Assembly: GCF_030013205.1 (NCBI RefSeq)
Contig: NZ_CP122649.1
Direction: 5' to 3' (one strand)
From: Escherichia coli
GTDB taxonomy: Bacteria > Pseudomonadota > Gammaproteobacteria > Enterobacterales > Enterobacteriaceae
DNA: 64,000 nucleotides
Positions within the stretch are counted from its first letter, which is position 1; each line of letters starts with the position of its first letter. Of this stretch, positions 1 through 3,000 are shown piece after piece. The position numbers were made by a program.

Positions 1-3000
1 TGGGGTGGTCTCATCGTTAGTACCTTCGCCGGACGTTTGTTCAGTCACGGTGGTTTCCGGGGGGGTCGCATTTGCGTCCGGCACGATGGCTGCTTTCGGC
101 TTCATCGCTGCATCAATGTTGCCAGCTTTGACGAATTTCAGGGTTTTGGCCGTCGCCTTACCATAAACATCAATGGCTTTGGTGATGTTGTTGACCGCTT
201 CATCGCCGCTGTAAAGGTATTCATCCAGCGCGACATACATACTCACTTCACCCTTCACCAACATGGCCTGGAGGGCTTCAGGCAGATCCAGGACGCGAAC
301 CATCTGACGCAGGTGCTGTTCGGTTTTACCGCGACGCTTCGCCAGTTCAGCGAACGTTTTGGGTTCTTCCGCGTCTTCAACCATCCGTTTGATGGAGAGC
401 GCCTCAGCTACGACAGACAGAGCCAGATTTGAGTTACCGTCCAGCGTAAACTGCTCGGCACTGGCGCGGCTACCGCGAAACTCCTCGCATCGAATTAACG
501 TGATCAATTCACGCCCTTCATCTGCCAGCTCGATGTTTGCCATCGCGACGGCACGGATACGGCATGCTCCCTGGCGCAGGACCGGACGGCCATTCAGAAT
601 CTGTACGACAATAGCTTGTACGCTTAAAGGATCGATCTTGTAGGACTCTTTCAGGCTGTTCAGGTGGGCTACCACGTCAGGTAATGAGTAGTAACTCTCC
701 CCAATGCCAGCAGTACGGGTGTTAAACCCCTCTTCCTCTTCGACCACTGCCGGGTTAATGACTAGACCATTGCTTTTGCGTGCGCCGTTACCGGTACGCT
801 CCAGGTAGGTGCGCAGGCTGATATCGTTGTTAGCGGTTTTTACATCATTTTCGACAGTGGACATGGTGCCTTCCTTTTAGTTTTCGTTTAGGGTGTTTGT
901 TCGCTACAAAACAACAATACCAGGTTCGATTCATTTCCTAATAACCTGAGGCGAAAAAAAAGTAACTTTTTTTCCGGGGGTTATAGTACGCGATCCGTCC
1001 GTTTTAAATTCTCGCTAAGGAGGGCAAATTTCACTTTAGTGTGAAAAGCGGGTACATAAAGCAGGAATATGTCGAAAAAGTTACTTTCCCGGTTGCCTGA
1101 AAAAATGCCGTTGCAGCAAACACAAGGTGTGAACACCCCCCCGCCCCGGCGGCTCCGGGCAAAGGAGTATCCGATGAAGCTTTCCCGGCAGACCACAAAT
1201 GATACGGCTGTAATCGAAGGCACCCGCAGATTACCGACCATATCGCCTCCCAGCGAGCCACCGAAGCCAAAAAAGACGGCATGAATTTTAATGCAGGCGT
1301 TGAGCTTGCATCTAAAAGGAACTGTGCAACGAGGACAAACATTACCATGATTGAACACCGCACAGAGATGCGCCAAACGGCCATTAAATCGCTTCAGGAA
1401 GCCGAAGAAGCATTGACGGCACTGGCTATGTCCTATGAGCTACAGCCCGATGATAAGGCCAGTTCGTGTCATCCACGGACCGGTACTCTCTCCACGGCCA
1501 GCCAGGTACGGAAATTGCGCCGTGTCGTCGAAAAGCAGAAAACTTGAAATTCGACAAGGCGGCGGGTAGCTATTTCCTGCATGTACAAACTAACAAGGGT
1601 TTAGCCGACGATAGAAAGGAAAAAAGGGTTTCCCCGACCGGAGAAACCCTTTTCTAAAGGTGCCATTAGCTTGCTGGCCCACATTCTGAAATGAGGGGGG
1701 TCGCCCCCCCTCTTTCAGCTACTTACCGGATTCGTAGTCCATCACAGCCGACACTTCCCGTGTACCGTCTTTCAGTCTCAGTTCGCAGAGCGAATTGCGC
1801 GTAAGCCAGGTGAATATCAACAGCGTAAGACATACTATCAATACGCACAAAACAACGGGTTGGTTCGGCAGTTTCATGGCCTTCTTCTCCTTGCATTTAA
1901 GCGGGTAAGAGGCTACTCTGAATGTGACTAGCATACAGGGGCCTCGGGTTAATTTGAAAAAATTACTCGGGGCTTTCTGCTTTTTACCACAGTCAAACAG
2001 TGAATCTGCTGGCTGGGGCAAAAGCCTCCAGCACCGAGGTTATTATACCACCCCGCCCCTTTTAAACGAACAGATCGTTCTCCTAAATATTTAATAAGTA
2101 AGTATTTCAGGTTTTGCTGCTTCGCAGGCTGTAACAGCAGGTGTCTGACGTAATAACTGATTAAACAGACGGATTCGAATCTCAACACTCAACGACGCCA
2201 GCTCGCCTGTTCCCCCGCTTCTTTCCGGCTGTAATCAGTCCGTTTTCGTACCAGCGATCAGTGACAAACGGTGAGCACGAACACTACTGTGCCGGAGGCT
2301 GTCCGGGTAATGGGCGATTTTCTCCAGTTCCTCATCGAGGCGGGTATACGTCAGCCTCCTGATTTTCAAGATTTCCTTGTGAAGCCAGCGTTTGATAAAG
2401 GGATTGCCGGAAAGCAGTACCAGGTCTGCATCCTCCACTTCATCAAAAAGCCAGACGGGTTTTGCCGGAGTAAGGCGGTAGAGCCAGGGGCGGGAAAACT
2501 CCCCCGTTGCAATCAGAAACCAGACAACCATGCCAAGTGCGAACTCGATGACCAGCATCAGGGTAAACTGAATATCCCGGACGTCAGGCTCTCCGGTAAA
2601 GCTCATTAGGCGGTCGCCAGTTGCCAGACGCTGAATAATACAGACCAGCATCAGCAGAGCCAGTAACAGCGCCATGAGCAGCCCGCCGTTCACTTCAAAA
2701 GTAGCTTTCTGGACGCGATCAGGCGGCACCTGCTTACGGTAGCGGCCGACCACATCACCAATCATTACCCTGATGGCTATGCGTTCTTCATCGACCGTTG
2801 TTTCGGTAAATCCGGACGGGCCCGTTTCTGTTTGATTCATGTACCCTCTCCTCTCTCTGAAAAATAATGGTAAGACGCAAGCTGATCATACCAGGTGAGC
2901 AGGAGTGGTTTTGTCGGTTAAAGGCTGGAAAAAAACGGTTAAAAAAAGAGGGAAATGACAGCAAGAAGGTGGGATGCAGTAAGCGGCTTTGGTTCCCTCC

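Follow-up and report, generated by a model that had tools for sequence, protein, structure and literature searches.

The closest described systems are the hok/sok (parB) locus of plasmid R1 and its IncF relatives (L007 and L010 in our comparison). Hok in these systems is 52 aa long, as in the locus described here, and the two proteins are 73% identical. The R1/IncF loci and our locus have a common order of elements: tac, a metastable hairpin, ucb, the Sok target hairpin, a leader start (SD-7 nt-AUG), dcb, the hok Shine-Dalgarno sequence (SD) and AUG, a G+C hairpin, fbi and a terminator. The overlap of the Sok promoter with the hok SD is common to both, as is the 17-nt promoter spacer, and the DNA identity over the core is approximately 72–77%. 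In contrast to the R1/IncF loci, where 58 nt separate the leader AUG from the hok AUG, the distance is 57 nt in our locus, which places the leader in frame with hok and leaves no separate 70-aa Mok. One tac-fbi pair is U-A here and C-G in R1, the 5' hairpin has a shorter upper part than in R1/IncF, and the hok -10 box is of the extended type (TGnTATAAT), unlike that of R1/IncF. We also notice that the IncF homologue adjoins psiA.

Closer in sequence are the hok loci of IncHI2 plasmids (L002–L004), with 84–88% DNA identity. They share with our locus the 57-nt in-frame leader, the UAA-AUG in the mok frame, the pair of tac (GGUGCUGG) with fbi (GGCACC) and the same downstream neighbour of 201 aa. 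The IncHI2 Hok begins with MKMPNQPI and is 87% identical to ours; only a 39-aa piece of it is annotated in RefSeq. Disrupted IncHI2 copies also occur, with a gene for an IS150-family transposase abutting the leader in L005 and the 3' UTR replaced by foreign sequence in L004. A further type, leaderless hok linked to relBE (L006, L011), is present in IncHI2 plasmids beside the intact locus. Its Hok coding sequence is homologous, but it is without tac, ucb, the leader SD and AUG and the Sok target, all of which our locus has. We take this leaderless type to resemble the relBEF/hokD arrangement of E. coli.

The window, that is, the whole 64-kb stretch of DNA analysed here, is 99.8% identical to the IncHI1 plasmids R27 and pHCM1. 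Within it lies the hok/sok "addiction" cassette (toxin gene and antisense RNA) of a resistance plasmid of the IncHI1 (R27) type, complete and well conserved. Each element of the R1 hok/sok model has its counterpart there (Table 1), and an alignment of 44 homologous loci served for comparison. On this basis we consider it probable (about 0.87) that the cassette functions as a type I toxin-antitoxin, or post-segregational killing, system of the hok/sok type and operates like the R1 paradigm. The cassette is ordinary and has been annotated before, and its sole curiosity is a leader reading frame fused in frame to the toxin gene. RefSeq already carries its annotation and no family of type I toxin-antitoxin systems has been studied better, so the locus itself adds nothing new; it is chiefly useful as a clean example in which all parts are delineated.

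Table 1. Features of the hok/sok locus and its neighbour, in positions of the window
Feature	Position	Strand	Basis or remark
Neighbouring gene, 5' part only	1..864	-	weakly ParB-like
hok promoter, extended -10 TGGTATAAT	2042..2050	-	sequence; 6 nt upstream of the inferred +1; -35 poor
Full-length hok mRNA, ~416 nt (predicted)	1620..2035	-	+1 at 2035 homologous to G1 of R1 hok mRNA
tac (translational activator) element, GGUGCUGGAGGC	2024..2035	-	first 7 nt pair with fbi
ucb / anti-SD box, AGCCCCGAG	1966..1974	-	sequesters leader SD in the closed fold
Leader (mok-type) SD, GAGG	1942..1945	-	7 nt before AUG 1934; aligns with R1 GAGG
Leader ORF fused in frame to hok, 71 codons (19 + Hok)	1719..1934	-	AUG 1934..1932 the predicted Sok-controlled start
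Remnant of canonical mok frame, 57 codons	1723..1896	-	closed upstream by UAA 1899..1897
hok SD, AAGGAG	1887..1892	-	9 nt ahead of hok AUG
hok toxin CDS, 52 aa	1719..1877	-	Pfam PF01848 HOK_GEF; annotated in R27
G+C hairpin directly 3' of hok stop, GAGGGGGG-GCGA-CCCCCCTC	1693..1712	-	sequence
fbi (fold-back inhibitory) element, UGGCACC	1659..1665	-	pairs with 5' end in MFE; covaries with tac
Intrinsic terminator of hok transcript	1620..1655	-	terminator scan: 16-bp stem, then TTTTTT
Sok promoter, -35 TTGCAT (1891-1896), 17-nt spacer, -10 TACTCT (1914-1919)	1891..1919	+	aligned with R1-type locus
Sok antisense RNA, ~60 nt (predicted)	~1926..1985	+	5' end uncertain by ~2 nt

The hok gene and its messenger

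A Hok toxin had been read from the sequence in a first-pass annotation, and the 52-codon ORF matches Pfam PF01848 (HOK_GEF) with E=5.4e-19 and 68 bits against a cutoff of 22 bits. By this match it belongs to the Hok/Gef membrane toxins, a family marked by a length of about 50 aa, a conserved N-terminal transmembrane segment and a C-terminal ...YESGK. The corresponding 159-nt coding sequence in R27 is annotated as WP_001447600.1, named 'type I toxin-antitoxin system Hok family toxin' in RefSeq, and the window protein is 65–87% identical to four reference Hok proteins. The heptamer CAAGGAG, which holds the hok SD, is invariant across the 44 loci.

An Rfam search, suggested earlier as a check for hok and Sok elements, returned RF01794 ('sok antitoxin (CssrC)') at 2036..1875 on the minus strand, with 89.1 bits against a gathering score of 59 and E=1.4e-18. 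The match covers the full 157-position model, is the only one in the whole window and is far beyond chance. Read literally, it would place Sok on the minus strand. We rejected this reading: the model represents the hok-sense strand, with the hok SD and AUG at its 3' end, so the match marks the leader of the hok mRNA, and the real Sok lies within it on the opposite (plus) strand. The R1-type locus L007 is likewise matched on its hok strand.

The hok promoter and transcription start are putative and were assigned through homology. A TATAAT or TATGAT box occurs at the equivalent position in the IncHI2 and IncF loci. When L007 was numbered from the homologous G, the published R1 positions of tac, the anti-SD, the SD and both start codons were recovered.

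The full-length transcript has an MFE of -154.4 kcal/mol (z=-4.4 against shuffles), and its 5' end is closed on UGGCACC. This GGUGCUG-UGGCACC pairing of tac with fbi was found again by RNAalifold in 44 sequences, 97.7% paired and with compensatory changes of C-G to U-A and U-A to G-C. At columns 3/430 of the helix, 39 of the 44 loci have C-G, three U-A and two U-G; the swap from C-G to U-A is that of the IncHI loci. The ucb box pairs with CCGAGGC in the MFE structures of both the full-length and the truncated RNA, and its AGCCCC is invariant in the 44 loci.

The G+C hairpin at 1712..1693, also recognized in the first-pass annotation, is paired in 98% of cases among the 44 homologues, with compensatory changes in four of its six pairs; in the terminator, seven of ten pairs show such changes. 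Taken over the tac-fbi, tac/dcb, G+C hairpin and terminator helices, 98% of positions are paired in the 44 distinct homologues. These values were reached in none of 500 shuffles, and slid controls were 40–62% paired. By analogy with the R1 data (PMC9841398), the processed mRNA, which is truncated and translatable, would be expected to end in the G+C hairpin and to be protected by its stem. The extent of 1693–2060 first given for the locus falls short at its left boundary, as fbi (1665..1659) and the terminator (1655..1620) belong to the hok transcript.

The sequence elements, their conservation and their covariation are direct observations, and they bear on whether the locus could be a decayed or silent remnant, an alternative raised at the outset. 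A UAA interrupts the canonical mok frame, and many hok loci elsewhere are inactivated, by an IS150-family transposase gene just upstream of the leader (L005) or by lying leaderless behind relBE (L006, L011). Here, however, the promoters, tac, fbi, ucb, both SDs, both AUGs, the hairpin and the terminators are all intact, and the leader start is retained together with its SD. The locus is almost unchanged in more than 200 IncHI1 plasmids, and its helices are kept by compensatory changes between IncHI1, IncHI2 and other lineages. Decay had been tied to a lack of an antisense promoter and of conserved fold-back elements; both are present, and we regard a remnant as highly improbable.

The Sok antisense RNA and the proposed regulation

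Sok and the leader had been expected within 1880–2060 although they could not then be delineated, and both fall there. The Sok promoter was located on the plus strand by alignment with the R1-type locus, in which the aligned stretch (TTGCGC...TATCCT) is presumably the R1 Sok promoter. Across all 44 loci, the TTG of the -35 box, positions A2 and T6 of the -10 box and the 17-nt spacer are invariant. A generic consensus promoter scan of 1500–2300 called no plus-strand promoter in 1880–2000, the interval proposed earlier for such a check. Each Sok hexamer agrees with the sigma-70 consensus at three of six positions, below the scan threshold of four matches, which explains the miss. The missed call does not count against Sok, but the poor match of the hexamers is a point against the main reading. 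The promoter was thus recovered by homology and by its invariance, not by the scan.

The predicted Sok RNA folds with -21.3 kcal/mol into a single-stranded 5' tail (10 nt unpaired), a terminator hairpin (1941–1973) and a U tail, and a longer version has a fold z of -4.5. It is complementary to positions +51 to +110 of the hok mRNA, which include the leader SD and AUG and exclude the SD and AUG of hok itself. These features point to a Sok RNA that is encoded in cis, has a promoter and a terminator to itself and is antisense to the translation initiation region of the leader.

We propose the following sequence of events, in which 3' processing, refolding, RNase III cleavage and killing are inferred from the R1 literature. 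The weak extended -10 promoter would give rise to a hok mRNA that is stable and ~416 nt long (2035..1620, minus strand). Its extreme 5' end (tac) would pair with fbi near the 3' end, and the leader SD would be locked by ucb, so the full-length RNA would be neither translated nor bound by Sok. Slow trimming of the 3' end to the G+C hairpin would then strip fbi, and the 5' region would refold so that the leader SD and AUG become accessible. In cells that carry the plasmid, Sok, unstable and made constitutively, would pair across both, and the duplex would be destroyed. In plasmid-free segregants, Sok would decay, ribosomes would initiate at AUG 1934 and travel on across the hok ribosome-binding site, and the membrane-damaging Hok would be made, leading to cell death.

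The MFE structure of the truncated RNA (ViennaRNA) retains a sequestered SD and the 5' metastable hairpin, and the open tac-ucb fold is approximately 6 kcal/mol less stable. ViennaRNA did not predict the closed-to-open switch for the truncated hok RNA; MFE does not capture kinetic switches.

Plasmid context and role

At 99% identity or more the locus occurs in 203 plasmid records, and 472 plasmid records match at 80% coverage or more. Within 1560–2100, the window differs from R27 at one position, a synonymous change in hok. IncHI1 and IncHI2 plasmids are carriers of multidrug resistance in Salmonella Typhi, E. coli and Enterobacter, and their persistence is partly due to addiction modules such as hok/sok. 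No relevant publication emerged from literature searches that covered experiments on hok of R27, 'stm' or stable plasmid inheritance, and a mok in frame with hok.

The location of hok beside a ParB-like gene had been read as typical of a plasmid maintenance region. The likeness is weak: the neighbour protein has a single HTH_ParB domain with E=9e-6 (about 1e-5) and 25.5–26.2 bits in two scans against a cutoff of 22.6 bits. The ParB N-terminal (ParB/Srx) domain was not found in the 401-aa neighbour protein of R27, no ParA gene is adjacent, and RefSeq lists the protein as hypothetical. The neighbour is not a recognised partition gene, and a weak HTH_ParB domain in a hypothetical protein leaves the maintenance-region argument soft.

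This neighbourhood also bears on whether the cassette is expressed with a main role other than segregational stability, such as excluding phages by abortive infection or helping the plasmid to establish itself early after conjugation. [quoted passage not shown] The psiA gene next to the IncF homologue would fit such a role, as would the setting of the window locus among small hypothetical proteins and the weakly ParB-like protein. The regulatory architecture, however, is exactly that of the R1 post-segregational killing system. We consider another main role improbable, and it would be compatible with a segregational role, the two not being mutually exclusive. Post-segregational killing remains our preferred reading.

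The leader reading frame

The long in-frame extension upstream of hok had been judged probably not to be mok. This holds for its first 29 codons, which are an artefact of ORF finding: the 100-aa ORF (2021..1719) begins with a TTG at mRNA position +15, inside the tac stem and without an SD, and we rejected it as a gene. From AUG 1934 onwards, the judgement needs to be revised. This AUG aligns with the R1 mok start, is covered by the predicted Sok and is preceded by GAGG at a distance of 7 nt, equal to that in R1, where the GAGG counterpart is G105/A106 (PMC9841398). It lies 57 nt upstream of the hok AUG, compared with the canonical 58 nt, and frame 0 is open all through.

Frame analysis of the window locus found no separate overlapping canonical mok gene, that is, no ORF of about 70 codons in the other frame with DUF5431. 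What is left of that frame matches Pfam DUF5431 with E=1.2e-17 over profile positions 14–70 of 70. AUG 1896 is unlikely to be the start of a shortened Mok, as it is without an SD, directly follows the UAA and lies outside the Sok-covered region. The C-terminal part of Mok is truncated in many canonical loci as well. Mutagenesis of R1 shows that ribosomes need to translate from the mok start as far as the hok ribosome-binding site but not beyond it (PMC9841398). The GAGG-7 nt-AUG at 1945..1932 would allow the same, a leader translatable from a Sok-controlled start across the hok ribosome-binding site. We do not take the missing canonical mok as disqualifying, and the frame from AUG 1934 onwards is, as far as its sequence indicates, the functional equivalent of mok.

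In the 44-locus alignment, ATG or TTG stands at 58 nt in 29 loci, ATG at 57 nt in five, including the window and two IncHI2 loci, and ATG at 59 nt in one, which has an AUGA stop/start overlap at its end. The other nine have no ATG, GTG or TTG in the aligned start column; in four of them, a scan of the raw sequences located a start in frame with hok and 57 or 60 nt upstream of it. The 57-nt in-frame layout is also present in R27 and in four IncHI2 loci (L002–L005), and an in-frame leader occurs in at least four chromosomal loci with intact hok.

With the leader start in the hok frame, translating the leader should by itself yield a 71-aa, N-terminally extended Hok, and the 52-aa Hok would possibly be made alongside it from the internal start. 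All three spacings of 57, 58 and 59 nt occur, and the in-frame start is found in IncHI1, IncHI2 and several independent chromosomal lineages. We tentatively suggest, at less than even odds, that mok is no gene and serves as a ribosome-delivery leader independent of frame, and that IncHI1 and IncHI2 plasmids make the 71-aa Hok straight from the antisense-controlled start.

A stronger version holds that the 71-aa Mok-Hok fusion from AUG 1934 is the only active toxin, with the internal hok start unused and regulation direct, without translational coupling to an overlapping gene. No stop separates AUG 1934 from the hok stop, in IncHI1 and IncHI2 as in the chromosomal loci; Sok covers AUG 1934 and not the start of hok itself; and gene callers repeatedly choose the 71-aa ORF. 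On the other hand, hok AAGGAG-N9-AUG is fully conserved in the in-frame loci, though the Sok -35 box on the other strand constrains the same stretch. From IncHI1 to IncHI2, the 19-aa extension shows the non-conservative substitutions Y to C, P to L, F to H and R to S, in a pattern that looks RNA-driven, and the chance of a 19-codon open stretch is roughly 0.4, which is not improbable. We doubt that the fusion is the sole toxin and retain the reading in which a 52-aa Hok may accompany it.

The in-frame variant is a small point. It bears on whether cells ever produce Hok in the form of a longer fusion, and on whether the 'third gene' mok means anything beyond ribosome delivery. Recent surveys have trimmed such N-terminal extensions as artefacts and left Mok unanalysed. 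The variant is also of importance for annotation. The exact 71-aa sequence has database entries under the names 'Stm', 'putative stable plasmid inheritance protein' and 'Hok/Gef-like protein', and one and the same locus is now called as a protein of 39, 52, 71 or 100 aa.

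Delineation of the hok mRNA and of Sok

The locus is an ordinary, already annotated hok/sok cassette, which is now fully delineated. The elements of the hok mRNA were placed by alignment with the IncHI2 relatives and an R1-type IncF reference locus (L007), and their coordinates were set by script. For comparison with the published R1 positions, L007 was numbered from the first G of GGCGCTTGAGG. This numbering reproduces every position given for R1 (tac G4/C5/T6, anti-SD A70-C74, SD G105/A106, mok start T117/G118 and hok start G176; Le Rhun et al., 2022, PMC9841398). By homology, window 2035 is the putative +1 of the hok mRNA.

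Elements of the hok/sok cassette in the window
Feature	Sequence	Position	Strand	Remark
Extended -10	TGGTATAAT	2050..2042	minus	
tac	GGUGCUGGAGGC	2035..2024	minus	
ucb / anti-SD	AGCCCCGAG	1974..1966	minus	
Leader SD	GAGG	1945..1942	minus	
Leader start	AUG	1934..1932	minus	
dcb, first nt	UAGCCUC	from 1915	minus	
hok SD	AAGGAG	1892..1887	minus	
hok start	AUG	1877	minus	
hok stop		1721..1719	minus	
G+C hairpin	GAGGGGGG-GCGA-CCCCCCTC	1712..1693	minus	
fbi	UGGCACC	1665..1659	minus	outside the span of the first-pass annotation
Intrinsic terminator		1655..1620	minus	also from terminator scan; outside the span of the first-pass annotation
Aligned Sok -35	TTGCAT	1891-1896	plus	
Aligned Sok -10	TACTCT	1914-1919	plus	
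Predicted Sok start		near 1926	plus	
Predicted Sok hairpin		1941-1973	plus	
Predicted Sok U tail		to 1985	plus	

The first-pass annotation had called a hok-type toxin locus here, a call borne out by the Pfam and Rfam matches, the antisense promoter and the conserved fold-back elements. The ORF at 1877..1719 encodes a 52-aa protein matching Pfam HOK_GEF (E=5.4e-19), as had been claimed, and the GC hairpin noted at the 3' end of hok is found. The Rfam search that had been suggested gives one match in the whole 64 kb, to the full length of RF01794 'sok' (minus strand, 2036..1875; E=1.4e-18; 89.1 bits, gathering score 59), in the region (1880-2060) previously left undelineated. The hok-type locus at this position is real, far beyond chance.

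Despite its name, RF01794 models the hok mRNA leader rather than Sok, since its consensus ends with ...CAAgGggaaggCuAaaAUG, which aligns to the Shine-Dalgarno sequence and start codon of hok, and since it matches the hok-bearing strand of L007 too. The match is thus ruled out as Sok itself, and the true antisense RNA has to be on the plus strand within 2036..1875.

There, a -35 and a -10 hexamer separated by a 17-nt spacer align with the Sok promoter of R1 (TTGCGC...TATCCT). The predicted Sok is about 60 nt long and has a single-stranded 5' tail, of which the fold leaves 10 nt unpaired, then a strong hairpin and a U tail. It is complementary to hok mRNA +51..+110, which includes the leader SD and AUG and excludes hok's own SD and AUG. 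This promoter was not called by a generic scan, as each hexamer agrees with the consensus at just three of six positions. Among 44 distinct homologues, however, there is no variation in the -35 TTG or at A2 and T6 of the -10, and all 44 have a 17-nt spacer. This conservation is supportive, not proof, because the hok SD and dcb, on the opposite strand, constrain the same columns too.

Folding, covariation and a proposed R1-type mechanism

In the predicted minimum free energy (MFE) fold of the full transcript (-154.4 kcal/mol, z=-4.4 versus shuffles), the 5' GGUGCUG pairs with the 3' UGGCACC, and the leader SD is paired to the anti-SD box. For covariation, 55 further hok loci were taken from one-genome-per-species contigs, and 44 distinct full-length mRNAs were aligned. 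RNAalifold independently recovers four helices in them, namely tac-fbi, tac/dcb, the G+C hairpin and the terminator. Standard pairs occupy 98.0% of cells in these helices versus 90.1% in shuffles (0/500 reach the observed value), and in controls that shift the partner by 1-3 columns, pairing is 40-62%. Compensatory changes occur in 14 of 27 pairs. At tac-fbi column 3/430, the pair is C-G in 39 sequences and U-A in three IncHI sequences, while two Erwinia/Pantoea loci have the U in tac as in IncHI, with the fbi GCAC slightly misaligned. The first-pass annotation had allowed for a decayed locus if antisense promoter and conserved fold-back elements were missing. Since both are found, that reading fails, and by its sequence the locus is not decayed.

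The sequence elements and covariation of the R1 mechanism are shown at this locus, and we infer that the mechanism applies; processing, refolding, RNase III cleavage and killing come from the R1 literature. The full-length hok mRNA would be inert, locked by tac-fbi and anti-SD pairing. Slow 3' trimming back to the G+C hairpin, followed by refolding, would then free the leader SD. In plasmid-bearing cells, Sok would bind the trimmed mRNA and the duplex would be destroyed; in segregants without Sok, translation from AUG 1934 would run through the hok ribosome-binding site. For the truncated RNA, ViennaRNA fails to show the closed-to-open switch, with the open fold some 6 kcal/mol less stable than the MFE; kinetic switches of this kind escape MFE prediction.

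An in-frame leader upstream of hok

In R1 and other IncF-type loci, the Sok-controlled AUG lies 58 nt upstream of the hok AUG and opens an overlapping 70-codon mok frame. The cassette departs from this model at one point: the homologous AUG of the window, of R27 and of those four IncHI2 loci that retain this leader segment (L002-L005) lies 57 nt upstream, with the same GAGG-7nt spacing, and so shares the reading frame of hok. No stop codon intervenes before that of hok, which makes a 71-codon ORF (19 aa + Hok). A UAA at 1899..1897 closes the canonical mok frame, which survives only as a 57-codon remnant (1896..1723) matching positions 14-70 of the Pfam DUF5431 profile. The upstream extension of hok had been judged probably not mok. 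This holds for the first 29 codons of the 100-aa TTG ORF, an artefact of mechanical extension to mRNA +15; from AUG 1934 onwards, the frame is the putative functional counterpart of mok. Judged by sequence, the toxin may be the 71-aa fusion or the 52-aa Hok, or both may be made.

Database entries for the exact 71-aa sequence are named 'Stm', 'putative stable plasmid inheritance protein' and 'Hok/Gef-like protein'; the 52-aa form is entered as 'Hok family toxin'. Public annotation is inconsistent (L002, L004, L007 and protein clusters), one gene being called 39, 40, 43, 50, 52, 71, 75 or 100 aa. In one IncF record, the strand of Sok bears a CDS of 62 aa labelled 'protein sok', though Sok is a non-coding RNA.

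Across the 44-locus alignment, the leader start is ATG at 58 nt in 26 loci, TTG at 58 nt in three, ATG at 57 nt in five and ATG at 59 nt in one; nine have no ATG, GTG or TTG in the aligned column. For four of these nine (L029, L034, L055, L045), a scan of the unaligned sequence finds a start in frame with hok at a distance of 57 or 60 nt. Besides the five ATG leaders at 57 nt, two further ones with this spacing sit before decayed hok genes. The 57-nt loci include chromosomal contigs of Citrobacter, Kosakonia, Buttiauxella, Atlantibacter and Franconibacter. The differing positions of their single-base departures from the 58-nt spacing point to at least three independent events. The C-terminal part of Mok is truncated in many canonical loci. 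Such variation is consistent with published work on R1, where translation is required only from the mok start as far as the hok ribosome-binding site (PMC9841398). Within the searchable literature, we found no paper discussing an in-frame mok. The in-frame leader is a modest variant, open to test.

The 59-nt spacing belongs to L015 (Enterobacteriaceae MAG, leader ~640-703) and is caused by an extra G in the hok SD region, so that the leader frame ends on an AUGA that overlaps the hok start, a classical termination-reinitiation layout. Eight otherwise intact leaders from Atlantibacter, Erwinia and Pantoea (L023, L030, L053, L058-L062) have ACA, ATA, TCG or CTG at the conserved start position; these loci either use a non-canonical start or are silent.

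Source plasmid and other hok loci

A 541-nt stretch around the locus shows 99.8% identity to R27 (NC_002305), a plasmid of Salmonella Typhi, and to pHCM1, and 203 plasmid records match it at 99% or more. Collinearity with R27 extends over window 1-4171 (99.86% identity), which identifies the window as an IncHI1, R27-type plasmid. The R27 record already labels the hok ORF 'type I toxin-antitoxin system Hok family toxin' (WP_001447600.1). Within 1560-2100, the sole difference from R27 is window 1776 (T here, C in R27), a base that also differs from all 25 top-ranked plasmid matches listed, each 99.8% identical. The change is synonymous in hok (Arg34, AGA versus AGG) and turns Ala into Thr in the overlapping mok-frame remnant. 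Because of this replacement, the 57-aa remnant as encoded here is not found in a collection of 15 billion proteins, where the 52- and 71-aa products are present.

The argument that a ParB-like neighbour marks a maintenance region is weak, because HTH_ParB matches the upstream neighbour (minus strand, window 1..864; the R27 protein has 401 aa) only marginally, an N-terminal ParB domain is not found in the R27 protein, no ParA is adjacent, and the other neighbours are hypothetical proteins per RefSeq. The hok locus itself is nevertheless a maintenance function. Directly upstream of the hok promoter, window 2235-2840 (minus) encodes a conserved 201-aa predicted membrane protein with a sub-threshold DUF5676 (2TM) match; a homologous 606-nt gene occupies the equivalent position in IncHI2 hok loci. 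An IS1 copy lies at 4188-4852 (minus; InsA Pfam E=1.7e-30, IS1 transposase E=2e-67). Collinearity with R27 ends at 4171 and window 4677-6612 matches R27 in opposite orientation, which together indicate an IS1-bounded rearrangement.

In some hok copies (L006 506-1074, L011 468-1167, also L014, L028, L050 and L057), a sequence common to them, ...CTTCTGCTTTGCGTTGACAGGAG, stands in place of the leader to within about 20 nt of the hok SD, so tac, ucb, the leader SD and AUG and the Sok target are gone. IncHI2 plasmids carry such a leaderless hok besides the intact locus. In two annotated IncHI2 plasmids (L006, L011), it lies directly downstream of relB-relE, which resembles the arrangement of relBEF/hokD in E. 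coli. Finally, two contigs of about 5 kb assigned to Streptomyces morookaense (L037) and an uncultured Oscillibacter MAG (L038) carry a hok protein and leader identical to those of L007. They are probably vector or enterobacterial contamination of the assemblies, as an enterobacterial plasmid gene is unexpected in those organisms.
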